Assembly: GCA_903854195.1 (NCBI GenBank) | Contig: CAINVO010000021.1 | Coordinates: 14,032 to 78,031, forward strand | Length of the DNA: 64,000 nt | Reading direction: 5' to 3' | Source of the DNA: an uncultured bacterium | Lineage (GTDB): Bacteria; Patescibacteriota; Minisyncoccia; Phycocordibacterales; CAINVO01 | Shown here: positions 3,755 through 57,461 of the stretch, one piece after another | Layout of the letters: each line of letters opens with the position of its first letter | How positions within the stretch are numbered: the stretch's first letter is position 1 | The notes under the pieces: generated by a model | The model's database searches: none | The model's input: the letters and a program-made list of their open reading frames with translations, nothing else | What the model was told of the DNA's origin: nothing | Made by a program: the position numbers and the translations under genes

Positions 3755-5212
3755 TTAAATGAAATGCTCACGTCTTATTTTTTCGATTTCTTCTTTATCT
3801 TTTTCTTCTTGTTTCTTTTTCCCATTTTCAGCAAGTCCTATAAGGGTTTTTTCATCATAAGCTACTAGTTTTAGAACCTTGTTTTCTAGATATTTTTCAC
3901 TATTAAGTTCTGGTTTTTCTAGAACTTCCTCCATTAATGCGTTTAAAATGTATCCAACTTTTCGTCCTGGATCCATTTTTGTTATTTCCATTATTCTTTT
4001 ACCGTTAATTTTTAACATGGCAACTGATACAGGATCTCTCATCACTTCATCTATCATGGCCTTATATTTTCTAAATCTATAGGGGTTTTCTTTAGGGCGA
4101 CCTGTTCCAATACGGTCACACATTCTAATGTTCATTAGGTTCCAAATATTCTCTTTGCCGACATTCTGAATCATTCTACGAACAGCTGATGGTGTGATTT
4201 GTTCTGTATCTGAAAAGAACATGTGCCATCGCACAAGGGTGACCACCTGTTCAATTGTCTTTTTGGGAAAGCGAAGTCTTTCCAGTATAATTTGGGACAT
4301 TTTCGCCCCCACAACTTCGTGTCCGTAAAATGTCCACTCACCGTTTTGTCCTTTACGTCGGCTTCTAGGTTTTCCAATATCATGAAGTAACGCTGCAAGC
4401 CTAATCTCTAATCCCCAACCTTTATCTACCGCATGCTGCATGCTGCGAAGTAAATGTTCCCAAACTGTGTATGAATGGGCTTTGTTTTGATCAATCCCAA
4501 TAGACTCTTCAAGTTCAGGGATTATGTATTTAAGAACTCCCAGTTTTTGAGACATTATAATCCCAATCATGGGTTCGTTAGACATAATAATCTTGATAAA
4601 TTCATCACGAATCCTTTCAAAAGCTATCTTTTCTAGAAGTTTCACGTTAAACATTAGTGCTTCCGAGGTCTCATTGTTAATCGTGAAACCTAATTCAGAG
4701 CTAAATCTAACGGCTCTAAGTATTCTAAGCGCATCTTCCTTGAATCGTTCGTTTGCGTCCCCTACGGCTTTTATTGTTTTGGATGCAATGTCTTCTTGTC
4801 CTTTATATAGATCAATAATTTCGCCTTTCTCGGGATCTAGTGCTATGGCATTTATTGTGAAATCTCTTCTCTTAAGGTCATCTTCAATATGTTGGCTGTA
4901 ATGAACCTTATCTGGGTGTCTGTGGTCACTGTAGGTTGTTTCTAGCCTATATGGGGTTACTTCAATGATCCTTATTGATTCATCTTCTTCCTCTTCATTT
5001 ACAACTCCCACTGTCCCGAAGGTGTTCTCATAAAACGTTTTGGGAAAAAGGGATATTATTTGTTCGGGAGTAGCGTTTGTTGTAACATCCCAATCTTTAG
5101 GCTTTTTGTTTAAAATTAAATCTCTAACACATCCACCAACTAAAAAAGCTTCAAAACCTGAGTTTCTTAATGTTTTTGTTATTTGTGAAACACTATTTGG
5201 GACACTTAACAT
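3755..5212 (-). CDS. cca: CCA-adding tRNA nucleotidyltransferase / poly(A) polymerase family with an HD domain; start trimmed to 'MLSVPN...'
   Basis: 'LVGGCVRDLILNKKPKDWDVTT' is the Pol-beta nucleotidyltransferase head domain. 'LLHDIGKP' is the HD motif. The ORF-track N-terminal 46 aa are the antisense reading of tRNA-Arg (5275..5347), so the real start must lie downstream of it. Confidence 0.75.
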   Translation of the reverse strand: MLSVPNSVSQITKTLRNSGFEAFLVGGCVRDLILNKKPKDWDVTTNATPEQIISLFPKTFYENTFGTVGVVNEEEEDESIRIIEVTPYRLETTYSDHRHPDKVHYSQHIEDDLKRRDFTINAIALDPEKGEIIDLYKGQEDIASKTIKAVGDANERFKEDALRILRAVRFSSELGFTINNETSEALMFNVKLLEKIAFERIRDEFIKIIMSNEPMIGIIMSQKLGVLKYIIPELEESIGIDQNKAHSYTVWEHLLRSMQHAVDKGWGLEIRLAALLHDIGKPRSRRKGQNGEWTFYGHEVVGAKMSQIILERLRFPKKTIEQVVTLVRWHMFFSDTEQITPSAVRRMIQNVGKENIWNLMNIRMCDRIGTGRPKENPYRFRKYKAMIDEVMRDPVSVAMLKINGKRIMEITKMDPGRKVGYILNALMEEVLEKPELNSEKYLENKVLKLVAYDEKTLIGLAENGKKKQEEKDKEEIEKIRREHFI

Positions 5213-7065: not shown

Positions 7066-8379
7066 CTATCGGGCACTACTCAACAATTTTACAAGATTGG
7101 GCTTTGTACTTAAAGAAAAATGATTCTGAGCAATTTGGTTAGATAAAAAAGTGTTTAAATTATTACCTGTTTCCGAGGTAATTTCGTTGTTTATTTGACC
7201 GATAGATAATCCTTGGATTGTGTATTTTGTGCTTATATTGCTAGATAAAATTGAAGTAACTATCCCAACAAAACCGGCATTGTTTGTTATAGGACTTCCA
7301 GACAAACCTATTTGTCCTATAGTAGAAGGTGAGGATATAAAGGTTCCAATATTAAAGGTACTTTGAATATTTAAATTTTCACTTTGTTGTCCTAGACCAT
7401 TTAGGACCTGTTGATAACTTTTTGACCCTGCTGGGTAACCAGTAATGTTTATCGAGGTTCCACTTTGTAGATTTTGATACTGTCCAGACCCAGGAAGTTT
7501 GTAGTATGTATTTCCAGTTTTTAGGTTTGAAATTGATAATATGGCAAAATCATTTTCACCAGTTTCTAGACATTTAGATGGATCATTTATACACTTGTAG
7601 TTGCTTTCTACCCAAGTTGGAGAAATGTAAATAAGGGTAGGGGAGTTTGAAATTGTTTGCGCGGTAGTCCCTGCCCGTATTGAGCATTTAAGATTTTGAC
7701 CGGATGTAGTACCTACTAATAGGAGGTATTCAGCAACGTGTGCGTTTGTTAGGATATTCCCTTGTTCTGTGATGATTGCTCCACTGCCTGATACCATGGA
7801 TTGGTTGTTTCCAACTTGGTTGGTACATATTATATTAACAGTACTATCAGAAATGTTGCTTGAGGGGTTGAGATTTTGCGTTATTGTTGGATTGGTTGAA
7901 TTACTCTGGGGCAAACTCGTATTGTCTGTTGGCGTGTTTGGCTCAACATTTTTGTAGACCTTGTTAATTAAGGCATCTAATTCTTTAAGGGGATTTGATG
8001 TTGTTGCAGTTGGTTGTGCTGGAATTTTTATTACCGTTTTGCCCTTGTCGGTCTTGTTTGTTGAAGATGAAATATTCTCATTTTGGTTTAAAATTAGTAT
8101 TTTGAAGATACTTGAGTCGTTGTTTTGACTTGGAGCTATTGATTTTTCCAATGCCGATTTTGAAGAAAAATCTGAGCCTAGTAGGGGAAATATAGCATTT
8201 ACTGAAAGATCCCCAAGACCACCCTTTGAAGAGTTTGGTGTGTTGTTTTTTTGGATTGAAGTATTGTCTGTTTGATTCAAATTTATACTAGAAAAGAAAC
8301 TTGCAAAAAAACCAATAGAAATTAGAATATGAATTATACCCTTGCCAATCATAGGTATAATTGTATGGATCGAAGTCAT
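7066..8379 (-). CDS. Membrane-anchored trypsin-like (S1 family) serine protease with long Asn/Ser/Thr-rich low-complexity linkers
   Basis: N-terminal TM 'IHILISIGFFASFF'. Catalytic His in 'GNILTNAHV', Asp in 'GENDFAIL', Ser in 'GLSGSPI' (GDSGGP-like). Confidence 0.6.
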   Translation of the reverse strand: MTSIHTIIPMIGKGIIHILISIGFFASFFSSINLNQTDNTSIQKNNTPNSSKGGLGDLSVNAIFPLLGSDFSSKSALEKSIAPSQNNDSSIFKILILNQNENISSSTNKTDKGKTVIKIPAQPTATTSNPLKELDALINKVYKNVEPNTPTDNTSLPQSNSTNPTITQNLNPSSNISDSTVNIICTNQVGNNQSMVSGSGAIITEQGNILTNAHVAEYLLLVGTTSGQNLKCSIRAGTTAQTISNSPTLIYISPTWVESNYKCINDPSKCLETGENDFAILSISNLKTGNTYYKLPGSGQYQNLQSGTSINITGYPAGSKSYQQVLNGLGQQSENLNIQSTFNIGTFISSPSTIGQIGLSGSPITNNAGFVGIVTSILSSNISTKYTIQGLSIGQINNEITSETGNNLNTFLSNQIAQNHFSLSTKPNLVKLLSSAR

Positions 8380-9386: not shown

Positions 9387-9445
9387 TTATAGGAGGGAGG
9401 CACTATGCATAATTATCTAGATTTATTTAACAAAAATATGTAAAC

Positions 9446-9477
9446 AAAAAACCCGCTCACATGAGCGGGTTTTTTGT
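9446..9477. terminator. Bidirectional rho-independent terminator between the epimerase gene (+) and hup (-)
   Basis: aaaaaa-CCCGCTCACATGAGCGGG-tttttt. Perfect 7-bp GC-rich stem, with A-run and T-run flanks. Confidence 0.65.
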
Positions 9478-9961: not shown

Positions 9962-11515
9962 TTATCTTGCAAATTCTATTGCTCTATTTTCTCGGATAAC
10001 AGTTACTTTTATTTCACCTGGATATTTTAAATCATGCTCTATTTTTAGAGCAATTTCACGGGCTAAATCATGAGCTTGTAAATCAGAAATTTCACTGGGT
10101 CTGACAAATACCCTTATTTCTCGGCCTGCTTGGAGTGCATAAGATTTTTCAATACCTGGAAAACCGTTTGCGATTGCTTCAAGATCCCCAAGTCTTTTTA
10201 GATAGTTTTCAACGCTATCGCTACGAGCTCCAGGACGTCCTCCAGAAATAGCGTCAGCTGTTTGGACGATAATTGATTCAACTGTTTCGTATGGGTACTC
10301 TTCGTGATGTGCCTGCATAGCTTTTATGACTTCTTCACTCGTTCCAAATTTTTGCAGGATTCTTCGTCCGATTTCAACATGACTACCTTGAACTTCATGG
10401 TCTAGAGCCTTACCAATGTCGTGTAAAAGAGCGCCTGCTTTTGCTACAAGTACATTTGCGCCAAGCTCCTCAGCAATCATTCCAGCAAGGTGTGCCATTT
10501 CAACAGAGTGCTGGAGTACATTTTGTCCATAACTTGTTCTAAAATATAAACGTCCAAGAATAGATACAACTCTAGGGTCTAGATTAAGAACACCTGTTTC
10601 ATATACAGCTTGTTCTCCTTTCTCTTTTATTATTTTATTGATTTCATTTTTAGCATTTTCAACTTCCTTTTCTATTTTTGCAGGTTGAATACGTCCATCT
10701 GCAATTAAAGCTTCAAGTGCTACGCGTGCGACTTGTCTTCGTATCGGATCAAAAGATGAAATTGTGATTGATCCGGGTGTGTCATCTACAATAATCTCTA
10801 CCCCAGTTTCACGCTCAAATGCCTTAATGTTTCGGCCTTCTTTTCCAATAATTTTTCCTTTTATTTCATTTGACTCAATAACTATATGGGTTGTAAAAAC
10901 ATCCGCAGTAACTGCATTTGCAAGTCGCTGAATAGATGTAGCTAGAATTTCACGAGCTTTTGTTTCAAGCTTTTCCTCACCGTTCATTTCAAGTTTTTTT
11001 AAACGAATTAAGATATCTTCTTCGTTTTCTTTTTCAACCGTTCGTATAAGTTCATTTTTTGCTTCTTCTGTTGAAAGACCAGCTATTCGTGAAAGCTCCG
11101 TCTTTTTGTCTAACTCCAATTTATCAGCCCTCTCTTTTATTGCCTTTATTTCCTCTATGCGTTGCTTGATTAATTCAACCTCCTTATCTATGTCAGTTTG
11201 TCTATGATCCAAAAGCTCCTCTTTTTTTATAAGGCGGTCTTCTGTTTTCTTTATTTTTTCTTCCTTATCCTTTGATTCTTCTCTGACTGTTTTTAATATT
11301 TCTGCTGCCTGACCCTCGGCATCAAGTGTGATTTTCTTGGCCGTCTCTTTTGCTTCAACTTCCATTTGCTTAACCTCAAGCTCAATAGAACCCTTTTTGC
11401 CGAGCGCTATTATCCAACGAAGCATGTAACCACCGACTAGACCAATACTGCCAGTTAAGGCAATAGTGACTAGTAATATTGTTAATGAAAAAACCATGGC
11501 GATTTGTTCGCTCAA
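9962..11515 (-). CDS. rny: Ribonuclease Y
   Basis: N-terminal TM, a long coiled coil, a KH domain ('IIGKEGRNIKAFERETGVEIIVDD') and an HD domain ('LLHDIGKALDHE'). Confidence 0.85.
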   Translation of the reverse strand: MSEQIAMVFSLTILLVTIALTGSIGLVGGYMLRWIIALGKKGSIELEVKQMEVEAKETAKKITLDAEGQAAEILKTVREESKDKEEKIKKTEDRLIKKEELLDHRQTDIDKEVELIKQRIEEIKAIKERADKLELDKKTELSRIAGLSTEEAKNELIRTVEKENEEDILIRLKKLEMNGEEKLETKAREILATSIQRLANAVTADVFTTHIVIESNEIKGKIIGKEGRNIKAFERETGVEIIVDDTPGSITISSFDPIRRQVARVALEALIADGRIQPAKIEKEVENAKNEINKIIKEKGEQAVYETGVLNLDPRVVSILGRLYFRTSYGQNVLQHSVEMAHLAGMIAEELGANVLVAKAGALLHDIGKALDHEVQGSHVEIGRRILQKFGTSEEVIKAMQAHHEEYPYETVESIIVQTADAISGGRPGARSDSVENYLKRLGDLEAIANGFPGIEKSYALQAGREIRVFVRPSEISDLQAHDLAREIALKIEHDLKYPGEIKVTVIRENRAIEFAR

Positions 11516-11820: not shown

Positions 11821-12390
11821 TTATAAAACCTTGTCTATAATTCCGTACTTCTTTGCCTCGTTAGCGTCCATGAAGAAGTTTCTATCAGCATCTTTCTCAA
11901 TCTTAGAAATAGGTTGACCTGTGTTTTTTGAAAGCATTTTATACAGAACTTCTCTTGTTTTTATGATGTGTTTAGCGCTGATTTCTATTTCTGTTGCTTG
12001 ACCCTCAGCTCCACCAAGTGGCTGGTGAATCATTATTTCTGAATTCTCAAGTGCGTATCTCTTTCCTTTTTTGCCTGAGGATAGAATCATTGCACCCATT
12101 GATGCTGCCATGCCTACACATATAGTAGAGACATCGTTTTTTATATGATTCATTGTGTCGATAATGGCCATCCCGGCTGTCACGTGACCGCCGGGGGAGT
12201 TGATATACAAAGAAATATCCTTCTTAGGATCTTCAGACTGTAAAAAAAGTAGCTGAGCAATAACAATGTTTGCTACATTTTCATCTATTGGGCCACCAAG
12301 GAAGATAATATTTTCTCTAAGTAGTCGGGAATAGATATCATAAGCTCGTTCGCCAAATTGTGATTTTTCTATAACGGTTGGAATTAACAT
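11821..12390 (-). CDS. clpP: ATP-dependent Clp protease proteolytic subunit
   Basis: '[55 protein letters not shown]' and '[11 protein letters not shown]' are canonical ClpP motifs. Confidence 0.9.
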
Positions 12391-35136: not shown

Positions 35137-35144
35137 TTAGTTAG

Positions 35145-35190
35145 AAAAAGACCCTCTTGGCAATTTCTCGCCAAGAGGGTCTTTTTTTGT
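35145..35190 (+). terminator. Rho-independent terminator after rpsG
   Basis: AAAGACCCTCTTGGC-aatttctcg-CCAAGAGGGTCTTTTTTT. Confidence 0.65.
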
Positions 35191-35260
35191 TGAAAGGTTT
35201 GTATTTTCTCTAGTATTGGTATATAAATCTAAATAGATTTTTGGAAAGGAGGTTGTAAAT

Positions 35261-35563
35261 ATGGGGATAAAATCTCACAAATTTAGCGTTAGGAAGGTAA
35301 AGAAAACAAAAAAACAAAAAAGAGCGGAAAAAAGGGTGCATAGAAATAAATATGAACATCTGGTCCCAGTAAGAATTTTTGACTATGATCCAATTGATAA
35401 AAAGTATAGAACCTTGCCGTTACCCTCAAAACCGGGGGAAGTTTATGGAAAAGGTTACATCGTGATCCACCATGGCCGAAGATATAGTCTTCGGTATGAA
35501 GTTACCATTCCGAAAAATGGGATTGCTAACGGGGATTTTATACTCGTCGGCAGTGTTAAATAG
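35261..35563 (+). CDS. Hypothetical small basic protein (100 aa) inserted between rpsG and fusA
   Basis: Strong SD (GGAAAGGAGG, 8 nt upstream). Terminators on both sides. Lys/Arg-rich N-terminus 'VRKVKKTKKQKRAEKRVHRNK'. No known family recognised. Confidence 0.45.
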   Translation: MGIKSHKFSVRKVKKTKKQKRAEKRVHRNKYEHLVPVRIFDYDPIDKKYRTLPLPSKPGEVYGKGYIVIHHGRRYSLRYEVTIPKNGIANGDFILVGSVK

Positions 35564-35587
35564 TATTAAAAAATAGATTTACTTTTT

Positions 35588-35631
35588 TAAAGCCAGACCA
35601 CTCAAAAAACATTTGAAGGGTCTGGCTTTTA
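35588..35631 (+). terminator. Rho-independent terminator after the small 35261..35563 gene
   Basis: AAAGCCAGACC-actcaaaaaacatttgaag-GGTCTGGCTTTT. Confidence 0.6.
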
Positions 35632-35722
35632 TTCTTAAATAATGCTATTTTACGAAGACGACTTTCAACTATTATACAAGTTGGTACTAGAGTCGGTTAT
35701 TTTATTTATAAAACAATATTTT

Positions 35723-37864
35723 ATGGAAAGAGATTATTCACTCGAAAAAACACGTAACTTCGGTATCATTGCGCACATCGATGCTGGTAAAACAACTACA
35801 TCTGAGCGTATTCTTTATTATACTGGTATGAGTCATAAGATTGGTGAGGTTCACGAGGGTGAAGCTACAACTGACTGGATGGAACAAGAAAAAGAGCGAG
35901 GTATTACTATTACTGCCGCTGCCATTACTTGTTTTTGGAACCCATCATATATGGGCAAGGATCAATCACTAAAACATCGTTTTAATATTATTGATACACC
36001 TGGGCACGTAGATTTTACTGTAGAGGTGGAACGATCTCTTAAGGTGCTTGATGGAGGAGTTGTTGTTTTTGACGGTGTGGCCGGAGTAGAACCACAATCA
36101 GAGACAGTTTGGAGACAGGCAGATAAATATAACGTACCACGTGTTTGTTTCATAAATAAATTAGACCGAACAGGAGGCTCATTTGAGCGTTCTTATCAAT
36201 CAATTTTGGATCGTTTAAATAAAAATGCTGTCCGCATGCAGATTCCAATTGGAGAAGAAGAAAAATTTGAGGCTGTTATTGATCTTATGAAGATGAAAGC
36301 ATATTACTTCGAAGGTGATATGGGAATTAACGTTCGTGAAGATGAAATTCCAGAAGCTTATTTGGCTGATGCAAAAAAATATCGTGCAGAGCTTGTAGAG
36401 CGTATTGTAGAAAATGATGACGGTCTTATGTCAGCATATCTTGAAGGTAAGGAAATTTCTATTTCTGCTCTAAAAGAAACTCTCCGAAAGGCAACTATTG
36501 CAAATAAAATTTTCCCAGTGTTTACAGGTTCTGCTTTGAAAAACAGAGGAGTCCAACTTGTGCTTGATGCCGTTGTTGATTATCTACCATCACCACTAGA
36601 TGTTCCTCCAGTAAAAGGAACTGATCCAGCGAATGGTGAAGAAATTTTGAGACATGCATCTGACACTGAACCTTTTTCTGCTCTTGCTTTCAAGCTTCAG
36701 TCAGATCCGTTTGTAGGTCAGCTTACTTTCTTCCGCGTTTATTCAGGTACAGTAGAAGCTGGTTCTTATCTTTACAACTCAACAACAGGAAATAAGGAGC
36801 GCCTTGGACGTATTGTTAGACTTCAAGCAGATAAACGTGAAGAAGTTAAAAAAGTTTACGCTGGAGAAATTGCAGCAGCTGTAGGTCTTAAAGAAGCAAA
36901 AACATCTCACACTTTTTGTGATGAAAATAATCCAATTGTTCTTGACCCTATTAAGTTCGCAGAGCCAGTTGTGTCATTGCGTATTGAACCAAAGACAAAG
37001 GCTGATCAAGAGAAGATGGGTATGGCTTTGAAAAAACTTGGAGATGAGGATCCAACTTTCCGTATTTCTACAAACCCTGAAACTATGGAGACTATTATTT
37101 CAGGAATGGGGGAGCTTCACCTAGAAATCATGGTTGATCGTATGAAACGTGAATTCGGAGTTGAGGCAAATGTTGGTAAGCCTCAGGTTGCATATCGAGA
37201 AACAATTCTCGGCACAGCAGAAGCTGAACATAAATATATTAAACAGTCTGGAGGTAAAGGTCAGTATGGTCACGTTAAGATTACTTTGAAGCCTATGGAA
37301 AAACTTGAAGAAGGCGCAAAGATTCCTAAAAATGTTAAGAGATACGATGACTTTGAATTTATCGATAGTATCAAAGGAGGTGTTATTCCTCAGGAATTTA
37401 TTCCTGCAGTTGAAAAGGGTGTACGTGAAGCTATGGAGCGAGGTATCGTTGCCGGTTTCAAACTTGTAAATGTGTCTTGTGAACTTACATTCGGTTCTTA
37501 TCACGATGTTGACTCATCCGAAATCGCATATAAGATCGCAGGTTCCCAAGCCTTCCAGGAAGGTGCTAAACGAGCAAAACCAGTTATTCTAGAACCTATT
37601 ATGAAAGTAGAAGTTGTAACACCTGAGCAGTTCATGGGAGACATCACTGGTTCTCTTTCTGCAAAACGCGCTCAAATCGAAGGTATGGAAGATCGCGGCA
37701 TGAACAAAGCTATTAAGGCTATGGTTCCATTGTCTGAAATGTTTGGTTATACAACAGCTCTTCGTTCCATGACAGCAGGACGTGGATCAGCAACTATGGA
37801 GTTTGATCACTACGAAGTTGTTCCTCCAAATGTTGAGAAGACTATTGTTGAAACACGTAAGTAA
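35723..37864 (+). CDS. fusA: Elongation factor G; start trimmed to '[25 protein letters not shown]'
   Basis: G-domain motifs ([21 protein letters not shown]) and EF-G domains II-V. Confidence 0.9.
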
Positions 37865-37977
37865 TAAAAATATAAAAACCCTTTCGGTGACACGCATAAA
37901 TCTTTACTAAGATTTTGCTATGCTCGGAGCCAAGCTCCTGTGCAATGTCACCGAAAGGGTTTTTATATTTTTATTAC
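37861..37977. repeat. 32-bp perfect inverted repeat with a 53-bp spacer, overlapping the fusA stop codon
   Basis: 37861-37892 'gtaataaaaatataaaaaccctttcggtgaca' is the exact reverse complement of 37946-37977. Pairing continues imperfectly into the last fusA codons, giving about 44 bp with 2 mismatches. Confidence 0.7.
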
Positions 37978-38014
37978 TTACACGTTTCCCCATTATTATT
38001 AAGATTGGAAATAG

Positions 38015-38056
38015 AAAAAATCGGTCACGCGCTCGCGCGTGACCGATTTTGTTTTT
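38015..38056. terminator. Bidirectional rho-independent terminator between fusA (+) and the 38082..38828 gene (-)
   Basis: aaaaaa-TCGGTCACGCGC-tc-GCGCGTGACCGA-ttttgttttt. Perfect 12-bp GC-rich stem. Confidence 0.7.
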
Positions 38057-38081
38057 GTTGTTTTTCAACAACTTACTTTTG

Positions 38082-38828
38082 TTATGACCCGCCAGCGATC
38101 GCAGCATTTTTATCATCAACAAGTCTGTTGTAAAGGCTACGAAGTTCCTCGAAGCTTTTGTAAGTACCTCCGCCCATTGAATACTCCATACAAGCATAGA
38201 CCCCTTCAGGACTTTCCAACGCATCGTTTCCGATGAATAGTTGAAACTTCTGATCCGGAAATCCGCCAGATGAGATTCTCGAACAAAGTTCAGAGAGTAT
38301 CCCGACATTCCATTCGTCGTTCCTGTGCTCTTCACCCATGATGGCCCCTTCAATCAAATTCAAGCACCCAGAAACAAAGTGATATTCTGTTGGAATATAT
38401 ATGATCCGTGGAACATGATTGATAAGAAGAGTCCCTTGTATCCTTCCGAAGTAGAACGCCTTCTTTGTCATTCTTGGGCCTTGGTCATCTGACCTCATTC
38501 TGACATTGTGTTTTTTTACACCCACCAATACGTACTGTCCTTGGTTTTCATCAATTGTTTTTTTCAATCCAATTAATGTTTCAACAATCTCCTCATGGAA
38601 ACCAAAGGAAGATATAACACTGTCAGTGAAATCTTCTCCAGTGGTAATCAATCCTTTGCGAAGTTCAGCTAAAAGTCTGGCTTCTTTTTCGGATTGTCGG
38701 CTTTGGATTTCTTCAATGGCAGAATTTGACTCCGCTCTGATTTTTGTAACTTCACTTTTTGAAGCAGCTTGTTCCTGCCAAAAAGTTTCGATGTCTTTAA
38801 ACCCTACGGGTTTCTCTTGTTCACTCAT
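38082..38828 (-). CDS. Hypothetical protein (248 aa) with an N-terminal coiled coil
   Basis: No confident family. The C-terminal 'MGGGTYKSFEEL' has a faint resemblance to the LOG/SLOG 'PGGxGTxEEL' motif, which is insufficient for assignment. Has its own terminator. Confidence 0.4.
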   Translation of the reverse strand: MSEQEKPVGFKDIETFWQEQAASKSEVTKIRAESNSAIEEIQSRQSEKEARLLAELRKGLITTGEDFTDSVISSFGFHEEIVETLIGLKKTIDENQGQYVLVGVKKHNVRMRSDDQGPRMTKKAFYFGRIQGTLLINHVPRIIYIPTEYHFVSGCLNLIEGAIMGEEHRNDEWNVGILSELCSRISSGGFPDQKFQLFIGNDALESPEGVYACMEYSMGGGTYKSFEELRSLYNRLVDDKNAAIAGGS

Positions 38829-38904
38829 TATGTGTATTTCTGTTCACAAATCTACTCTGAAAACAAAAGAAGTCAATATTTATAAAATATAAATATGATA
38901 AAAA

Positions 38905-38956
38905 TAAAAGAAAAGACCAGTCATACGTTTCCGTGCGACTGGTCCGTTTTTTTTTG
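38905..38956 (-). terminator. Rho-independent terminator after the 38987..39520 gene
   Basis: GACCAGTC-atacgtttccgtgc-GACTGGTC, followed on the + strand by tttttttt and preceded by aaaag (A-run). Confidence 0.55.
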
Positions 38957-38986
38957 GTAAAAACTTGTTAGGTTCAGTAAACTGAA

Positions 38987-39520
38987 TCATTCCTCTTCAG
39001 CGATGCGCCTGAAATGTTGATGCATTTTTTCTTTAAGTTTGCTGAATTCGTGGACGATCATTCCACCAGAATCATTGATGAAAAATTCAACCTGAAGATT
39101 AACTTTTGCACCCTCCTCTCCTGTCTGACGAAAGTCACTTCGATATGCAATAATAATTTTTCCGAGTGAATATGCATATCCAATTTCTGAAGCAGTGCCA
39201 CTGTCAACTTCCTGTCCATCAAGAAGTGCGAGAACGATTCTTGAACAACGTATTGCTTCGACGTTTCGTTCTCCAGTGATTTTGTTTGCCTCTTGAAATC
39301 TTCTGTCACGGATTTTTCCAAGTGGAAGTTTGAGTGCCTTTTCGAAAAGTTCGAGTGGCGCCTTTTCAAATGGATTGATTACTTCGTACCCAATTTTTTT
39401 GAGCACCGGAGTAATCTTTTTTTGAAGAAAAAATCTCCCTGCCTCTGAAAACCCAAAGGGGTTAGCAAGGTAAACTCCGGGTTTTTTATACCCGATTTCT
39501 GTTGTAGTGTTACTTTTCAT
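38987..39520 (-). CDS. Nucleoside 2-deoxyribosyltransferase-like protein (PF05014 family)
   Basis: 'PGVYLANPFGFSEAGR' and 'DSGTASEIGYAYSLGKIIIAY' match the NDT signature, including the catalytic Glu in the DxGTxxExGxA box. Confidence 0.6.
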   Translation of the reverse strand: MKSNTTTEIGYKKPGVYLANPFGFSEAGRFFLQKKITPVLKKIGYEVINPFEKAPLELFEKALKLPLGKIRDRRFQEANKITGERNVEAIRCSRIVLALLDGQEVDSGTASEIGYAYSLGKIIIAYRSDFRQTGEEGAKVNLQVEFFINDSGGMIVHEFSKLKEKMHQHFRRIAEEE

Positions 39521-39618
39521 TTTATATCAGTTCAATCTAGATTCCATATTAAGGAAAAAAGTAGAATAAGCAAGCTTATAGGGTCTTCACCCCGGTATTT
39601 TAATTTTTGCTTTTTAAA

Positions 39619-39671
39619 ATAAAAAACCATCAATTTAAGTTGTGAAGCTTAAATTGATGGTTTGTTTTTTT
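39619..39671. terminator. Bidirectional terminator after the 39723..41411 gene
   Basis: aaaaaa-CCATCAATTTAAG-ttgtgaag-CTTAAATTGATGG-tttgttttttt. Perfect 15-bp stem. Confidence 0.6.
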
Positions 39672-39722
39672 GAGTTTTTCTTTCGGGTCAGTGAAACTGT
39701 TTCGTAATCCCGACCTTTTTCA

Positions 39723-41411
39723 TTAGAGTTTGAACGATACCGAGACTCCTTCAATTTTGGAAACTTTCTTCAAAGCACTTTCCACTAAAGGGTGTTTTTT
39801 TGGTAATCCAAATCCAATTAAAAACTGTCGCCTCATTCCATGATGCCTAAAATGAAATGATGCCATATTCACTTCCATTTCCTTGAATATAGAAGAAATT
39901 TCATTTAGGAGGCCTCTACGGTCTGTTGATCTGTTGAAGCTGACAATGGCAACCCTTTCTGGATTACGTTCTTCCATAAGGGCTATGAGCTCATCAAAGA
40001 GGTTGTTTGATTCTTTAATGTATCGCGGCCCAACATATTTTGCAGCTTCGTCGAAGAAGTTGCCGAGAGGGGCATTGTCGCCGCTCTTTATACAATCTGC
40101 TATACAGTTGCGTACTCTGGTAGCAATCTCCAAGGACCGATCAATACTTCTTAGAGCATAGATGTTTTCTGTCATTATTCCAGGATAAACGGCACGATTT
40201 TTTAGCATTCGGCCATATTTGCACAATGAAATGTTGTAGAAACCTGTGGCTAATTTCATATACTCTCCAATAGGTATGCCAGACTCTTTTAAAGAAAGGC
40301 ACTCTATTAAATTGTAAAAATGTTCTTTACCTTGGATTTCACCCATTATTTCATCATGCCTCTCTGCGTTTATCCATACAGCCTTGGCTCCTGTCGAAAG
40401 AAGGAATTCCTCTACCCAGGCTTTTTTGCCATTTAACCTCCCGTTGCAGACGGCTATTGCTCGACCTTTCCAGCTCCTTGCGGATGGGGGAAAGGTTGGG
40501 TGAAACCCAATTACTTGAGCCTTTGTCGCAAGCATGGCTTCCATTGCTGGAGCTTTTACAGATGTGATGTCAAAGACTAGCTGGTCTTCCTTAAGATGCT
40601 TAGAAATCTTTGAAATAAGCCCTGGGGTCTCTTTTGTTGGGGTACAGAATACAACAACATCGGATCTCCTTATTATTCGCCATATTTTTGACGGATGGGT
40701 ATCTTCACTGATTGACTCAGTTTTGCAACCAAGTTCTTTGAACCTCCTTATAAATGCTAGTCCAAACTTACCCTTTCCTCCAAATACGGCTATATTTAAG
40801 GGTTCAACATAAGGATCGTGATAAAAAACACCGAAAGTGGTGCTATTTCGCGGACAATCCTGAATTTGTTCCTCTAGCACTTTTAATCCATATTTTTTTG
40901 CAATTTTCAGACTTCCTATTGCTGCGATTGTTCTGGATTCTATGCATGTGGCAGTTCTCCTTGCAGCTAAGGCTGTGGATTTTGAGGCTAAAAACCTCAA
41001 TTTCTTAAGGTGAGCATGTTTTTTTATGTTCCCTCTGCATTGATCGTAAGCCTCTCTTTTCGTACTTATAAGTGTTATTTCCTTTACGGATTTAATGCTT
41101 GGATGTACGAGCAAGTTGTGACTTATTTGAAGGGTGATTTTGTCAATTTGTCCAATGTTTGGATTGTTTTTAAGTAATTTTTTGCATACCCTTGTGACGC
41201 CCATAATTTCTCCACAAGTGGAATTATTTATGGGTAGAACTGCAAAAACTTCACTTTCTCTTAGTCTTTTTATTATTTCTCTGTGTGAGTCACACAAAGT
41301 TACAAAAAATTGACCATTTTTCCACTGATAATGCTTTGCAAAAGCAAAAGCTGCCACTTGGCCATTTGTTCCTGCTGGTCCTAGGGCCAGTATTTCTCTA
41401 ATTTCATTCAT
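39723..41411 (-). CDS. Fusion protein: prephenate dehydratase-like domain, prephenate/arogenate dehydrogenase-like NAD-binding domain, and a C-terminal ACT domain
   Basis: N-terminal 'ILALGPAGTNGQVAA', 'LPINNSTCGEI', 'ISTKREAYDQC' and 'AAIGSLKIAKKYGLKVLEEQIQDCPRNSTTF' are PDT-like. Middle 'IAVFGGKGKFGLAFIRR...VFDITSVKAPAMEAM...ERHDEIMGEI' is TyrA-like. C-terminal 'RVAIVSFNRSTDRRGLLNEISSIFKEMEVNMASF' is ACT-like. Confidence 0.6.
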   Translation of the reverse strand: MNEIREILALGPAGTNGQVAAFAFAKHYQWKNGQFFVTLCDSHREIIKRLRESEVFAVLPINNSTCGEIMGVTRVCKKLLKNNPNIGQIDKITLQISHNLLVHPSIKSVKEITLISTKREAYDQCRGNIKKHAHLKKLRFLASKSTALAARRTATCIESRTIAAIGSLKIAKKYGLKVLEEQIQDCPRNSTTFGVFYHDPYVEPLNIAVFGGKGKFGLAFIRRFKELGCKTESISEDTHPSKIWRIIRRSDVVVFCTPTKETPGLISKISKHLKEDQLVFDITSVKAPAMEAMLATKAQVIGFHPTFPPSARSWKGRAIAVCNGRLNGKKAWVEEFLLSTGAKAVWINAERHDEIMGEIQGKEHFYNLIECLSLKESGIPIGEYMKLATGFYNISLCKYGRMLKNRAVYPGIMTENIYALRSIDRSLEIATRVRNCIADCIKSGDNAPLGNFFDEAAKYVGPRYIKESNNLFDELIALMEERNPERVAIVSFNRSTDRRGLLNEISSIFKEMEVNMASFHFRHHGMRRQFLIGFGLPKKHPLVESALKKVSKIEGVSVSFKL

Positions 41412-41510
41412 AACTTACAATCTTTTCTCTCAATTTTTGTCAAAATTCTATTGAAAACTCTGAGGCGATACTACGCTACTCATGGATAAAGTCAAAACCG
41501 TAAAAATAAT

Positions 41511-41538
41511 TTGACTTTCCAAAGGTATTTGCTATGAT
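41511..41538 (+). promoter_or_regulatory. Candidate sigma-70-type promoter for tuf and the downstream S10 genes
   Basis: TTGACT-16 nt-TATGAT, ~200 nt upstream of the tuf ATG. A 9-bp perfect hairpin (aagtttaac/gttaaactt, 41688..41717) sits just before the tuf start. Confidence 0.4.
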
Positions 41539-41736
41539 GACCCGTATCGCGTTTTGCGCTTTTTTTGTCTACGCTGAGAAATTGTTTTCCAATTACTTAG
41601 CTGGTGCAGACCAAGTGGGGCAGAATCAAGATAAAAGTCATTTTATTATCATTCATCAATAATCATATAAGTGCTAGGTGGTAAAGTTTAACAAGTTCTC
41701 GCGCGTTAAACTTTGATACTTAGCCAAAAAAAACAT

Positions 41737-42927
41737 ATGGCAGAAATATTTGATCGATCAAAGCCACACGTTAACGTAGGTACCATTGGACACGTTGACC
41801 ACGGCAAAACAACTCTAACAGCAGCTATTTTGAATGTGCTTTTCCGCGCTGGAAAAGATGTAAAACTTAAAGCTGTTGACCAGATTGACTCAGCCCCAGA
41901 AGAAAAAGCTCGTGGAATCACAATTGCTCTTTCTCACAACGAGTACTCAACAGATGCTCGTCACTATGCTCACATTGATGCCCCAGGTCACGCCGACTAC
42001 ATCAAGAACATGATCACAGGTGCCGCTCAGATGGACGGTGCTATTCTAGTGGTTGCTGCTACAGACGGTGCTATGCCCCAAACTCGTGAGCACGTTCTTC
42101 TAGCAAAGCAGGTGGGTGTACCTAAAATTATCGTTTTCCTAAACAAGTGTGACATGGTTGATGATCCAGATATGATCGACCTTGTTGAAGCTGAGATCCG
42201 TGAACTTCTAGCAAAGCAGGGATTTGATGAGAACTGTCCAGTTATCCGTGGTTCTGCTCTTAAGGCTCTTGAAGCAAAAGACAACACAGATGAATGGTCA
42301 AAGAAGGTTCTAGAACTTGCTGACGCTCTTGATACATATATTCCTATGCCTATTCGTGAGACAGATAAGCCTTTCCTTATGCCTGTAGAAGATATCTTCT
42401 CAATTGAAGGACGAGGCACAGTGGTAACTGGACGTATTGAAAGAGGTATTTGTAAATTAGGTGATGAAATCGAAATTATCGGTATCAAAAACACAGTAAA
42501 GACAACTATCACTGGTATTGAAATGTTCAACAAACAGCTTACCGAAGGTATGGCTGGAGACAACGCAGGTATCCTAGTTCGAGGTCTTAAAAAAGAAGAC
42601 ATCACTCGAGGTCAGGTTCTTGCAAAACCAGGTTCAGTAACTCCTCACACAGATTTCGAATCAGAAGTTTACATTTTGAAGAAAGAGGAAGGTGGCCGTC
42701 ACACTCCATTCTTCACAGGTTACAAACCACAGTTCTATATCCGTACAACTGACGTTACAGGTGAAGTAACTTTGAAAGAAGGTGTTGAAATGGTTATGCC
42801 AGGAGATACAGTTACATTCAAGGTAAAACTAGTTTCACCAGTTGCCCTAGAAGAGAAACAGAGATTTGCTATCCGTGAAGGTGGTAAAACAGTAGGCGCC
42901 GGAGTTGTAACAAAAATCGTTGCCTAA
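41737..42927 (+). CDS. tuf: Elongation factor Tu; start trimmed to '[27 protein letters not shown]'
   Basis: Canonical EF-Tu throughout. Confidence 0.95.
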
Positions 42928-45051: not shown

Positions 45052-45891
45052 ATGAAATCCTATAAACCAACATCCCCATCACGTCGACAAATGAGTAATA
45101 TTTCTTATAGAGATGTTATCACTGCTACTACACCCCATAAAGCTCTTACAAAGGGTTTTAAGCGTTCTGTTGGTCGCAACAACCAAGGTGTTATTACTAC
45201 TCGCCATAAAGGTTCTGGTCACAAAAGAGTTTTCAGAGATATAGATTTTAAATACACAAAACTAGATATTCCTGCAACTATTTCAACTATTGAGTATGAT
45301 CCAAACCGATCAGCTTTTATTTCTCTTGTTACTTATAAGGATGGTGAGAAAAAATATTCTATTCTTCCAAAATCATTAAACGTTGGCGACACTTTTATTG
45401 TGTCAGAAAAGGCTGAAATTAAGGCTGGAAATCGTCTCCCACTTAAAAATATCCCAGTTGGTACATTTGTATACGGAGTAGAAGTCAAACCAAAAGGCGG
45501 TGCATCTATTGCGCGATCAGCTGGAAATTATGCTGAAGTTGTTGCCCATGACGAAGGATATGCTCAAATCAAAATGCCTTCATCAGAAGTTCGTAAGGTT
45601 AAGGATGAGTGTTGGGCATCAGTCGGAGAAGTTTCAAATGATGAAAATCGTCTGCAAAATTATGGAAAAGCAGGACGTAGTCGTTGGAAAGGTATCCGCC
45701 CTACAGTTAGAGGTACAGCACAGAACCCAGTAGACCACCCACATGGAGGAGGAGAAGGACGTCAGGGTCGTGGTCGCCGTCGCGCAATCTCAGTTTACGG
45801 CAAACCAACAGGAAAGGGACAGAAATCTCGACATCCTAAGAAATATTCAAATAAATTTATTGTAAAGCGAAGAAAAGTAGGAAAGAAATAA
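45052..45891 (+). CDS. rplB: 50S ribosomal protein L2
   Basis: 'GRNNQGVITTRHKGSGHKR' and 'VRGTAQNPVDHPHGGGEG' match L2. Confidence 0.9.
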   Translation: MKSYKPTSPSRRQMSNISYRDVITATTPHKALTKGFKRSVGRNNQGVITTRHKGSGHKRVFRDIDFKYTKLDIPATISTIEYDPNRSAFISLVTYKDGEKKYSILPKSLNVGDTFIVSEKAEIKAGNRLPLKNIPVGTFVYGVEVKPKGGASIARSAGNYAEVVAHDEGYAQIKMPSSEVRKVKDECWASVGEVSNDENRLQNYGKAGRSRWKGIRPTVRGTAQNPVDHPHGGGEGRQGRGRRRAISVYGKPTGKGQKSRHPKKYSNKFIVKRRKVGKK

Positions 45892-45925
45892 AAAAAAGAC
45901 CCTCAAATGAGGGTCTTTTTTTGTG
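45892..45925 (+). terminator. Rho-independent terminator immediately after rplB, in the position normally occupied by the rplB-rpsS junction
   Basis: aaaaaa-AGACCCTCA-aat-TGAGGGTCT-ttttttt. Confidence 0.65.
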
Positions 45926-45998: not shown

Positions 45999-46301
45999 TT
46001 AACTCAGAATGCCGCAACTTCCTTTGCTTGGGATCCAGAGTACTGCTTCTGGCCATTTTAATGGCGATAGGGTGATGTTTTGAGGGAATCTTGCCACAAT
46101 TCCGTCAGGGAAGCTTATGAGCTCAGTCACGACCCCTACTAATGTTTCCCAGTGGCCTAGGAATTTATATGGAATGATTAGTTGGCTGCCATCTAGGACA
46201 GCGCGAATTAATTGGTTTTCAGTAGGGATGTTTATTCTCTGAACACCAATGAATATACTTGCTGGGTTTAGTGGGTAACCATTTTCGTCAGTTACTTTCA
46301 T
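45999..46301 (-). CDS. Hypothetical protein (100 aa) inserted, antisense to the operon, between rplB and rpsS; locally elevated GC
   Basis: Strong SD (TAAGGAG, 6 nt upstream of the ATG). Own terminator. No recognisable family. Confidence 0.45.
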   Translation of the reverse strand: MKVTDENGYPLNPASIFIGVQRINIPTENQLIRAVLDGSQLIIPYKFLGHWETLVGVVTELISFPDGIVARFPQNITLSPLKWPEAVLWIPSKGSCGILS

Positions 46302-46450
46302 GTAATCTCCTTAGTTATCTGGACGGTTTATCCGGACAGATTGGTTTTTCAAGAAAGGGTTTTGCGTAATGTAAAACCATCACTTTCTGACTATACTTTA
46401 ATACAAAAAGTTCGCATTGTCAATACATAGAGTAAACTTGTTAAAATTTA

Positions 46451-46560
46451 AGCCACACATATAGCTCTTTTTGAGAACCTTGCGCAGGCTGACGGGCCGA
46501 GAAGAGCAAAATCCCAGCAGGGATTTATGTGTGTGATCAAAAAGAGCTATATGTGTGGCT
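46451..46560. repeat. 24-bp perfect inverted repeat with a 62-bp spacer (110-bp hairpin element) upstream of the rpsS promoter
   Basis: 46451-46474 'agccacacatatagctctttttga' is the exact reverse complement of 46537-46560. The spacer holds a 7-bp hairpin, aaatccc-agca-gggattt. Confidence 0.7.
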
Positions 46561-46566
46561 GATAAT

Positions 46567-46595
46567 TTGACATTAAATACATCCCTTGATAGTAT
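46567..46595 (+). promoter_or_regulatory. Candidate sigma-70 promoter re-initiating rpsS-rplV-rpsC...
   Basis: TTGACA-17 nt-TAGTAT, 42 nt upstream of the rpsS ATG. Confidence 0.5.
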
Positions 46596-54541: not shown

Positions 54542-54579
54542 AAAAAAACGCCGGAACAATTGTTCCGGCGTTTTTTTTA
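54542..54579. terminator. Bidirectional rho-independent terminator after secY
   Basis: aaaaaaa-CGCCGGAACAATTGTTCCGGCG-tttttttt. Perfect 11-bp palindrome. Confidence 0.7.
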
Positions 54580-56666: not shown

Positions 56667-56726
56667 TTAAACAGTAGGCAAAAACAAAAAAGCATTAGCG
56701 AAATACTCGCTAATGCTTTTTTGTTT

Positions 56727-57461
56727 TTACAAACTCTCCCACAATATCTCAAATATAGATCTGAATACGTCTACCATTGGGGGGATAGCGATGACTACAC
56801 ATAGAGCATCTACTTCAGGGCCCACAATTACAATTTTATCGTTGTAAATATCGATAGTACTTTTGAACTTGTACTTTTCTGGCATGTATTTATATTCACG
56901 GAGGAGAGATGTGTCGTTTTGACCTTCTTCACCCATTGAGTCACCAGACAAAAGTAGTTTTACTCGAGTGCTATTTTCCGCTCGCTTTTTTCTGAAGTCT
57001 AGAAAGAAATCACGATCAGTGTTTAACCAAGTCGAAGCACTTCCAATAATGTAATATTCTTTATTTTTGTATTCACTTAGGATTTCATCATAGAAAAGTT
57101 TAAGTTCATCTTTTGATTTGATGAATCTCACACCGTAAATACTCTTGTCGGTTTTGGCTAAGCCCTCTAGATAGGGGATTATTTTATTAAAAGACTTAAT
57201 CTTTCTTTCAAAAAGAGTGCCTAGTTGTTGTGGTTTAACAGGATAAAAGAGTTTTTTACCTCCTTGTTCATAGACAGTGACTATTCCTTGGGAGATGAGT
57301 CTTTCGAGGATTGGATAGACCGTGGTCCTCTTTATATTTACTTCGCTAGCCAAAGATGTAGCGCTGCAGCCACCAGTTTTTAAAAGGCCTACATAAAGGT
57401 CTATTTCTTGCTCAGAAAGTCCCAAATCCTTCAATATATCTAGATAGTTATTAGTATTCAT
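56727..57461 (-). CDS. TrmB-family transcriptional regulator (second copy, paralog of 54588..55376)
   Basis: 'LSEQEIDLYVGLLKTGGCSATSLASEVNIKRTTVYPILERLISQGIV'. Confidence 0.7.
   Translation of the reverse strand: MNTNNYLDILKDLGLSEQEIDLYVGLLKTGGCSATSLASEVNIKRTTVYPILERLISQGIVTVYEQGGKKLFYPVKPQQLGTLFERKIKSFNKIIPYLEGLAKTDKSIYGVRFIKSKDELKLFYDEILSEYKNKEYYIIGSASTWLNTDRDFFLDFRKKRAENSTRVKLLLSGDSMGEEGQNDTSLLREYKYMPEKYKFKSTIDIYNDKIVIVGPEVDALCVVIAIPPMVDVFRSIFEILWESL

Follow-up and report, generated by a model that had tools for sequence, protein, structure and literature searches.

A covarying three-way junction enclosed by a long, locus-specific inverted repeat at the 3' end of fusA in a Paceibacterota-type genome

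Introduction

Hairpins found between bacterial genes belong to several described systems. Intrinsic terminators, which may be bidirectional, lie right after a stop codon, between convergent or tandem genes, and consist of an A-tract, a stem and a T-tract that can be read on both strands around a loop of 3-8 arbitrary bases. The Correia/NEMIS, ERIC, RUP and BOX elements are dispersed intergenic elements of ~100-150 bp that form long hairpins when transcribed, vary in their presence and are often located at gene ends. REPIN/REP sequences, mobilised by RAYT, are likewise dispersed intergenic hairpin units. Integron attC sites conserve structure over sequence and function as one folded strand. Finally, the 6S, small SRP and Y RNAs, of roughly 100-250 nt, join their 5' and 3' ends in a long helix below a conserved apical domain. 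In the present work, we describe a hairpin, E1, at the 3' end of the fusA gene of an uncultured bacterium, in a 64,000-nt stretch of contig CAINVO010000021.1 that was analyzed as a whole and is called the window below. An original prediction, made from the sequence alone, had singled out the long inverted repeat that forms its arms. This interpretation needs to be inverted: the arms are unique and the spacer that they enclose is conserved.

The comparison of E1 and its relatives with these systems brings out as many differences as similarities. E1 has the location and the tracts of a bidirectional intrinsic terminator, but its apical loop is a 53-nt covarying three-way junction, its stem extends over 32-44 bp and, in the family to which it belongs, the strand under stronger selection is antisense to the gene that is terminated. 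Correia/NEMIS, ERIC, RUP and BOX conserve the whole unit with its terminal inverted repeats and usually display target duplications, whereas here conservation is confined to the centre and ~12 bp of inner stem, the outer arms mirror the flank of each locus and no duplication was seen by eye at the copies inspected. REPINs conserve the stem and leave the loop free; here the reverse is true, and no Y1/HUH transposase occurs among the neighbour families listed (25 of the 104 families matched by 68 flanking proteins). The attC sites conserve the base of the stem, with its R and L boxes and extrahelical bases, and vary at the apex, the opposite of what is seen here. The conserved R''/R' boxes (RYYYAAC...GTTRRRY) of attC have no counterpart in the stem bases, which share nothing between copies, and neither an integrase nor a cassette array is present among the window genes checked or the listed neighbour families. 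Unlike the 6S, SRP and Y RNAs, to which it has no Rfam match at E <= 10, the family is multi-copy with variable occupancy, and its junction differs from SRP domain IV and from the 6S bubble. Template-switch (quasipalindrome) mutations would fit arms that mirror coding or promoter flank and remain perfect while diverging between genomes; template switching is however a mutational mechanism and not a family, and judged by the outcome it may operate here. The family would be terminator-like in its working and is palindromic-repeat-like in its distribution, and lacks both the small arbitrary loop of the former and the conserved termini of the latter.

The long hairpin at the end of fusA

E1 lies across the stop codon of fusA, whose product EF-G has its best database matches in 713-aa proteins of Candidatus Pacebacteria/Paceibacterota (83-92% identity). 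Judged by this protein, the window belongs to Candidatus Paceibacterota/Parcubacteria, in the candidate phyla radiation (CPR). The original prediction reported a perfect 32-bp repeat, which is confirmed: the 32-mer GTAATAAAAATATAAAAACCCTTTCGGTGACA at 37861-37892 (+) has its exact reverse complement at 37946-37977, and 0 of 100 dinucleotide shuffles of the window contain even one 32-mer match. It also described a pairing extending to ~44 bp, with two mismatches, into the last fusA codons, and this holds as well (37850-37860 with 37978-37988). The mismatches (A-C and C-A) concern the plus strand; on the minus strand both become G-U and the helix is unbroken over 44 bp (37850-37893 with 37945-37988), with 41 Watson-Crick and 3 G-U pairs. 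A separate inverted-repeat search delimited arms of 55 nt, 37838-37892 and 37946-38000, that are 87% complementary and separated by 53 nt. The fusA stop codon falls within the left arm, and the helix spans this codon and the last four sense codons, amounting to an overlap of 15 nt, stop included, between arm and reading frame. The folding energy reaches -102.4 kcal/mol on the plus strand (z = -13.5 versus shuffles) and -105.8 kcal/mol on the minus strand (z = -14.3). An independently assembled 3.5-kb contig from ENA (L005) matches the window identically over 406 shared nt at this place, which argues against an artefact of one assembly.

The inner stem of E1, CCCTTTCGGTGACA...TGTCACCGAAAGGG, is followed by TTTTTATATTTTT and presents on both strands a U-run after the hairpin, with the stop codon in the left arm; the orthologous hairpins of two relatives (L067 and L069) have the same U-run layout. 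E1 nevertheless departs from the short G+C-rich terminator stem, of about 5-15 bp with a 3-8-nt loop, by its 32/44 bp, its A+T-rich composition and the 53 nt that it encloses. In the terminator consensus scan, E1 was not called and a hairpin at 38017-38050 was. The latter is the conventional G+C-rich terminator that had been noticed 40 bp downstream: it begins exactly 40 nt past 37977, is proximal to a convergent 248-aa open reading frame (ORF), is conserved in a relative (L065) and was scored with 15 pairs, 8 of them G-C, a 4-nt loop and T-runs on both strands. The claim that E1 lies far beyond ordinary terminators has to be softened. It is the longest hairpin in the window, yet built in the local terminator style: ordinary terminators of the window are themselves long, near-perfect palindromes that include the A/T tracts, with arms of 15-29 nt (a perfect 22-nt palindrome at 54542-54577; 29-nt arms at 56673-56735; also 9444-9477 and 45891-45922), and relatives carry perfect stems of 20-22 bp after fusA. 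Several of these ordinary window terminators share the stem GACCCTC.../...GAGGGTC.

A conserved fold at the apex

A conserved, covarying three-way junction occupies the apex of the hairpin on the strand antisense to the upstream gene. In E1 the arms are unique; conservation lies in the 53-nt spacer as read in the orientation opposite to fusA, on the minus strand. The original prediction had suggested looking for other copies of the 32-mer or of the 53-bp spacer, with a mixed outcome: the 32-mer is unique in the window and the spacer is repeated, while orthologous fusA ends have no simple conserved terminator in common. A 19-mer of the stem had 4 matches in the genome collection, about the number due to chance by estimate, and the one examined (L003) lies in an unrelated context. 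A window-wide search for large inverted repeats located a second copy, E2, on the plus strand. The spacers of E1 (-) and E2 (+) align as TTGCrCAGG - small hairpin - CCGAG-nAn-AGCAAAATC-yy-AGyA-rr-GATTTATGyGTGT, with compensatory changes at the tip of the second hairpin; the arms of the two copies are unrelated.

Class A elements, to which the window copies correspond, have a P1 hairpin of 4-5 bp. A covariance model, R1, was built from 22 class A sequences and the fold was obtained with RNAalifold on the same 22. R1 finds exactly two copies in the window. It matches E1 at 37877-37961 (-) with 83.3 bits (E = 1e-28), all helices being located at 37894-37944 inside the closing helix P0, a score that is partly circular since E1 is among the 22 training sequences. 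The relatives L065, L067 and L069 are outside the training set and score 51-64 bits. The family fold consists of P0; of P1a with three pairs (U-A, N-N, C-G), an RCA/GA internal loop and P1; of the junction CGAG-NAN-A; and of P2, GCAAAAUCnn / nnGAUUU-A-UGY, with a bulged A and an A-N-Y-A tetraloop.

Base pairs are maintained in this fold by paired substitutions. In an alignment of 39 sequences, 96.5% of the cells are paired and double changes are found at 22 of the 26 pairs, although these counts should be read with reserve, the alignment having been fitted to R1, which flatters them. The covariation score of the 39 sequences is 0.60, compared with 0.17 for shuffles and <= 0.10 for slid partners, and an independent MAFFT alignment gives double changes in 16 of 26 pairs. 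P1a position 20:51 occurs as G-C, U-A and A-U in the alignment and, by eye, as C-G in L028. The metagenome scan relied on a 21-base core pattern that forces conservation at 21 positions in the loci anchored by it; the divergent copies recovered by R1 show that those positions do covary. In such off-pattern copies P2 is rewritten with full compensation, AAAUC/GAUUU becoming UUUCC/GGAAA and GCA/UGC becoming GGA/UCC. E1 very probably belongs to a conserved structured family, the inverted repeat reported originally being its closing helix.

The choice of strand rests on wobble pairs. With the orientation set by the core, P0 comprises 563 Watson-Crick, 41 G-U and 11 A-C pairs over unique loci; in the core and inner P0 of the 22 sequences, a hand tally of the pair table gives about 24 G-U versus 4 A-C. 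Because G-U exceeds A-C, the folded and selected strand is the core-forward strand, which in E1 is the minus strand, antisense to fusA. By our reasoning, deamination does not account for this excess, since deamination of an exposed sense strand would bias the counts in the opposite way.

The metagenome scan yielded 59 loci, of which about 55 are real members and four or five are chance matches. By these sequence matches the family is widespread, in Paceibacteria-type (CPR) genomes and in metagenome contigs of unchecked taxonomy. R1 recovered extra divergent copies in L013, L024, L025, L052 and L061, where second or third copies lie within 3-10 kb, and further copies in L065 and L069. The strict core pattern had no match in viral contigs, nor did a blastn search with the whole element in phage and plasmid records. 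Family elements are rod-shaped and roughly 100-250 nt long, with a conserved apex of about 55-60 nt. The inner 12-14 bp of P0 look homologous by eye in five copies (E1, E2, L065 a, L065 b and L067), while the outer P0 is locus-specific and adds 3-31 bp beyond the ~15 bp included in R1 (29 bp in E1, 27 in E2, 31 in L064, 25 and 22 in L065). In class B, P1 is replaced by a conserved hairpin of >100 nt (AAATTAGAAAACAACGACGA ... GACGATTGTTTTCTTGATTTCC) with optional internal insertions, giving elements of about 170-260 nt without the outer stem; an intermediate form also exists. Class B is present in L008, L010, L012, L014, L021, L046 and others (about 7300-7505 in L014; about 3215-3540 in L010, with a closing helix of about 35 bp).

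The window, 17 loci and class B were compared with Rfam 15 at the gathering score, where no family matched, and at E <= 10, where only generic long-hairpin miRNA models appeared, far below threshold. No description of the motif was found in the literature searched on CPR/Patescibacteria, an account in unsearched literature being possible. This specific family appears undescribed in Rfam and in the literature searched.

Several candidate identities were rejected. SRP domain IV, the 6S central bubble, group II domain V, hammerhead and other small ribozymes, retron msr/msd and TIGR or omega-type guide RNAs disagree with the consensus and have no Rfam support. A kink-turn at the RCA/GA loop is excluded, N26 covarying with N46 as a Watson-Crick pair. 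An invertible promoter switch was set aside on account of poor hexamers in the core, arms that differ between loci and hairpins that covary; so was a small ORF inside the element, P1 varying in length out of frame and conservation following the base pairs.

The same slot with different arms in related genomes

The fusA regions of six relatives with available DNA (L065-L070), reached through a homology search with EF-G, since look-ups of the exact fusA protein gave no match, were scanned with R1 and with the repeat search (Table 1). E1 and the L069 copy have an identical P1 (AGGAGCTTGGCTCCGAGCA), with P2 and P0 rewritten, and the three positional orthologs (E1, L067 and L069) keep 21 of 34 pairs via double changes. 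Because the orthologs keep the fold through such compensatory changes, the fusA-end element can be considered old and maintained in place. The family has persisted for long at particular slots and has been gained or lost at others. L065 possesses two cores, 90% alike, one following rpsG and the other preceding the tuf promoter; at these places the window has either nothing or a plain terminator. L070 has a core upstream of fusA. The loop of the L065 fusA hairpin contains GACTCGC...CCGTTC, matching both ends of the cores of that genome; these 6-7-mer matches are not significant, and the loop could be a decayed core copy or a chance resemblance.

The arms are locus-specific, nearly perfect and mirror adjacent functional sequence. 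Those of E1, E2 and the orthologs have no sequence in common, and the far arm copies the terminal codons of its own fusA in the window, L065 and L068. E2 has a counterpart in L066, where a hairpin with 50-nt arms and a mini-core directly precedes the rpsS -35 box. The outer part of the right arm consists of flanking DNA that is homologous between the two (GTGTGGCTGATAATTTGACA versus GTGTTGCTAACTTATTTGACA), and in each hairpin the left arm is the mirror of the right one. The mini-core is a 27-nt spacer, TAAGACTTGGGCAAGCGCCCCGGAGCG, always between GAGAC...GTCTC, within hairpins with arms of 31-61 nt (4834-4982 and 13325-13451 in L066; 692-780 and 5133-5247 in L068); R1 does not detect it.

Table 1. 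Features of the two window copies, their surroundings and the fusA ends of related genomes (positions in the window unless a relative is named; EF-G percentages are identities)
Feature	Position	Strand	Description
fusA (EF-G, 713 aa)	35723..37864	+	Start MERDYSLEK..., stop TAA 37862-37864; full EF-G domain set by Pfam
P0 3' arm (E1)	37850..37893	-	fusA stop and last four sense codons in antisense; perfect 32-mer 37861-37892
Core, three-way junction (E1)	37893..37945	-	TTGCACAGG-AGCTTGGCT-CCGAG-CAT-AGCAAAATCTTAGTAAAGATTTATGCG; homologous to E2 core
P2 hairpin (E1)	37894..37918	-	GCAAAAUCUU-AGUA-AAGAUUU(A)UGC; bulged A 37897, loop 37905-37908
P1a and P1 (E1)	37921..37944	-	P1a 37942-37944 with 37921-37923; internal loop ACA/GA
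P1 hairpin (E1)	37934-37938 with 37926-37930	-	Loop 37931-37933; closing pairs covary
P0 5' arm (E1)	37945..37988	-	Perfect 32-mer 37946-37977; 37978-37988 mirrored fusA end with two transitions
G+C-rich bidirectional intrinsic terminator	38017..38050		16-nt perfect arms, 2 nt between (repeat search)
Convergent 248-aa ORF	38082..38828	-	First gene of the three-gene minus-strand fusA-tuf block
E2	46439..46572	+	Between rplB and rpsS; 36-nt arms; perfect 24-bp stem 46451-46474 with 46537-46560
E2 core	46475-46536	+	62-nt spacer; R1 match 46464-46547, 89 bits
rpsS promoter-like site	46567..46595	+	TTGACA-17-TAGTAT with TG; -35 hexamer is the outermost part of the E2 right arm; homologous flank in L066
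fusA end, L065 (EF-G 92%)	8121-8237		Long hairpin mirroring its own, different last fusA codons; unrelated 34-nt loop
fusA end, L066 (EF-G 89%)			Plain perfect 22-bp hairpin, 5-nt loop
fusA end, L067 (EF-G 86%)	11157-11236 (R1)	-	Full core, 15 nt past fusA stop; 21-nt arms; 51 bits
fusA end, L068 (EF-G 89%)			44-nt arms over last fusA codons, abutting tuf -35 box; 27-nt mini-core (P1a and P1, no P2)
fusA end, L069 (EF-G 87%)	12158-12242 (R1)	-	Full core; perfect 32-nt arms of wholly different sequence, from stop codon; 55-nt spacer; 64 bits
fusA end, L070 (EF-G 87%)			Plain perfect 20-bp hairpin, 5-nt loop

Position in genomes

The element comes directly after a stop codon and ahead of the next promoter. 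The downstream ORF is convergent in 32 of the 42 loci having one, and its stop codon lies 6-61 nt from the end of the matched core pattern, one outlier aside. A divergent-gene setting was encountered in 2 of 34 fully scored loci. Between tandem genes the element is antisense in 16 cases and sense in 5. The arms overlap the convergent ORF in 5 loci and end 5-34 nt short of it in 14 other scored loci. Often an A-tract borders the 5' arm on its outside and a U-tract follows the 3' arm (..AAAAUAGUCUCUG... / ...AGAGCUAUUUU), the shape of a bidirectional terminator. In the fusA regions of L067 and L069, the hairpin bearing the core is the only one that the repeat search finds between fusA and the next gene. 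The suggestion of an mRNA 3'-end stabiliser or terminator-type role is therefore plausible as far as the arms are concerned, given their A-tract/stem/T-tract build, their place after the stop codon and the lack of any other hairpin found by the repeat search at this place in these two relatives.

Promoter-like sequences accompany some copies. By eye, -10-like boxes abut the helix before E2 (extended -10 TGTTAAAAT) and before E1 (AATAAT), and in L069 a TATAAC lies opposite the extended -10 of the next gene; a clear promoter-like site, TTGTCA-17-TATACT, is located upstream of the L045 copy. E2 is flanked by divergent promoter-like sites, those of a 100-aa minus-strand ORF and of rpsS. In L069 an extended -10-like sequence, TGTTATACT, overlaps the end of the arm. 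As read from this arrangement, the downstream gene of L069 would have little or no leader, unless it is co-transcribed through the hairpin.

The family has no conserved protein neighbour, all-against-all clusters of flanking ORFs containing only spurious ORFs that overlap the RNA. The listed neighbour families are housekeeping ones, such as FtsW, Hsp70, DnaJ, GreA, tRNA synthetases and SecA; neither among them nor among the window genes checked is there a transposase, a reverse transcriptase or an integrase. Target-site duplications were looked for by eye, with no systematic test, at E1, E2, L065 a and L065 b, and none was seen: the flanks are inverted and not direct, the only candidate duplications being palindromic, and ambiguous, TA/AT dinucleotides.

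A composite explanation and its rivals

We favour, at a probability of roughly 0.6, a composite explanation in which a structured apex is carried by a bidirectional-terminator helix, the apex belongs to an antisense RNA and the arms are kept perfect by copying. P0, with its A-tract and U-tract, would act as a bidirectional intrinsic terminator ending both the transcription of fusA and the antisense RNA that bears the apex; in the window it would be backed up by the G+C-rich terminator belonging to the convergent 248-aa ORF. The antisense strand would yield the apex as a small hairpin RNA, starting perhaps at the -10-like box that abuts the helix. Some partner would then recognise the apex; it could be a protein, or a processing enzyme (RNase III, for instance) that acts on the long duplex. 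A duplex of 25-45 bp is a natural RNase III substrate. One arm would be repeatedly re-templated from the other, by intrastrand template switching or by hairpin-directed correction, which would leave the arms perfect. We infer this re-templating from arms that are perfect, wholly different between orthologs and copies of their own fusA codons. The arms would have grown into the last fusA codons, their growth stopping only at functional sequence, an idea in keeping with arms that end at a stop codon or coding end on one side and at a -35 box on the opposite one. A single event of template switching can create a whole hairpin or make one perfect (PMC10710096).

A number of observations weigh against this explanation. 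Termination by P0, which we consider probable, is read from sequence features, and a terminator needs no conserved apex, so that such a role would not account for the apex. The promoter scan detected none for the minus-strand RNA of E1, the AATAAT box seen by eye just upstream of the helix being weak. The gap between the arm and the next start codon is only 15 nt in L069 (12259-12276), and both E2 and L065 b are located between divergent genes, where a terminator is unexpected. Cores from the same genome are closer to each other than positional orthologs are (72% for E1/E2 versus 63% for E1/L067; 90% for L065 a/b), and sites have been gained or lost among close relatives. This same-genome similarity and this turnover of sites would also suit a mobile or gene-converting element.

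The original prediction had already considered such an element, in the form of a mobile repeat resembling a miniature inverted-repeat transposable element (MITE). A non-autonomous unit of ~85 nt, comprising the core and ~12-bp terminal inverted repeats in the inner P0, would transpose into intergenic DNA, with a preference for sites within or beside terminator hairpins, the long outer arms being secondary. Much of the distribution agrees with it: the copies are multiple and dispersed, two of them within 64 kb; occupancy differs among close relatives, as with the L065 copies after rpsG and upstream of tuf; paralogs of one genome share lineage-specific core features; the inner arms resemble short inverted repeats (CCyUUUnGrG.. 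/ ..CCGAAArGG); and the antisense bias of 16 versus 5 recalls the orientation bias of transposable elements. While dispersal and variable presence thus stand, the 32-mer is unique, the four copies inspected by eye (with no systematic test) showed no target-site duplication, the listed neighbour families and checked window genes include no transposase, reverse transcriptase or integrase, and the termini are not conserved between copies. In addition, two old slots (the fusA 3' end, shared with L067 and L069, and the region upstream of rpsS, shared with L066) have kept the fold by compensation, the G-U pairs are strand-specific and class B carries an elaborate conserved P1 of >100 nt. Since positional orthologs keep the fold via compensatory changes, selection seems to act on the folded strand and not on ends recognised by a transposase, and a MITE-like origin appears unlikely, though it has to be taken seriously. 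A trans-acting small RNA family, be it a ribonucleoprotein RNA of the 6S, SRP or Y kind or a set of sibling small RNAs, would make P0 only a processing or terminator stem and the gene-end location incidental to compaction of the genome. The rod with its paired 5' and 3' ends and conserved branched apex, the strong purifying selection on structure with its strand-specific signal, the larger class B versions of about 170-260 nt and the promoter-like sites before L045 and E2 would all suit such an RNA. Its copy number is however too high and too variable for a housekeeping RNA, Rfam gives no match to 6S, SRP, Y or others, the junction does not have, on its 5' side, the length needed for a 6S-type open-promoter mimic, P1 has only 4-5 bp in class A and many copies leave no room for a promoter of their own, all of which makes it distinctly improbable.

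Two further readings fared worse; the scar and the protein-binding palindrome come from the original prediction. The first takes the hairpin as an insertion scar or attachment site bordering the block of three genes that separates fusA from tuf. This block is lineage-specific, fusA and tuf being adjacent in L066 and L068, and all four copies in the window and L065 adjoin lineage-specific genes. Nonetheless, no direct repeat was found in 37400-42000, which covers the hairpin and the whole block; L067 and L069 carry the core at the fusA end with different, unrelated downstream genes; L065 retains part of the block, namely the prephenate dehydratase/dehydrogenase gene and a short stretch similar to the 248-aa ORF 3' end, without any core at its fusA end; and the listed neighbour families of the metagenome loci are ordinary housekeeping ones. 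The scar is accordingly very improbable. The other reading, in which the loop has no meaning and the hairpin is either an intrinsic terminator of unusual size or a DNA palindrome bound by a protein, would accommodate the place after the stop codon, the A/T tracts and the long terminators of this genome, but the loop itself is conserved and covarying, which refutes a meaningless loop, and the arms, the part that a DNA-binding protein would recognise, are wholly different between copies and between orthologs; we find it scarcely credible. A more ambitious reading makes the apex an RNA module with an activity of its own, as a ribozyme of a new class or as the site that some CPR protein recognises, and has the core drive the self-extension of the palindromes; we hold it to be doubtful.

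Other features of the window

The fusA-tuf block (38082-41411, minus strand) consists of the 248-aa ORF, a nucleoside 2-deoxyribosyltransferase and a fused prephenate dehydratase/dehydrogenase. The 248-aa ORF, of which an identical copy exists on contig L005, has no match in Pfam or PHROGs. In L066 and L068 fusA and tuf are adjacent, and in L065 only a short stretch like the 3' end of the 248-aa ORF remains (about 8296-8330), along with the prephenate dehydratase/dehydrogenase gene. The region upstream of tuf is conserved in three genomes (window 41505-41575, L065 11228-11300, L066 8218-8290) and presents a promoter-like TTGACT-17-TATGAT, then GACCCGTATCGCGTTTTGCGC and a run of 7 T, about 150 nt before the start codon. 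It is possibly a short leader hairpin with a U-tract acting as an attenuator.

The rpsG-fusA junction (35137-35722) is split by a 100-aa ORF (35261-35563), for which no Pfam or PHROGs match was found; it has a basic N-terminus and a ribosome-binding site of its own and is bordered by two hairpin terminators, one on either side. In relatives this slot is occupied by a RelB-like gene (L065), by MazE and Fic (L069), by a 326-aa ORF (L068) or by nothing (L066); it is a hot spot for accessory genes. The insert between rplB and rpsS (45999-46301) contains a 100-aa minus-strand ORF with a good ribosome-binding site, its own terminator and no family match, while L066 encodes a 248-aa PG_binding_1 protein in the same slot.

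Implications

CPR/Patescibacteria have very small genomes in which, to our knowledge, hardly any non-coding RNA has been characterised. The present analysis provides a well-covarying, multi-copy RNA fold for these organisms, with a model (R1), defined helices and dozens of loci. Its unusual trait is that the functional-looking part occupies the position of a terminator loop, on the strand antisense to the terminated gene, while the arms behave as self-mirroring DNA, able to overwrite non-coding flank and to copy coding sequence. For annotation, the family accounts for puzzling giant palindromes at gene ends in these genomes. Should the apex be active, these genomes would carry structured RNAs at the tips of terminators, with arms re-templated and a palindrome invading whatever flank tolerates it, up to stop codons and -35 boxes; the core would then cause the giant palindromes rather than ride in them, a situation without counterpart among known repeats. 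If the element is selfish, it would represent a new style of bacterial repeat. If instead the apex binds a factor or catalyses a reaction, it would offer a handle on the insulation of transcription units or on RNA processing in organisms not yet grown alone.

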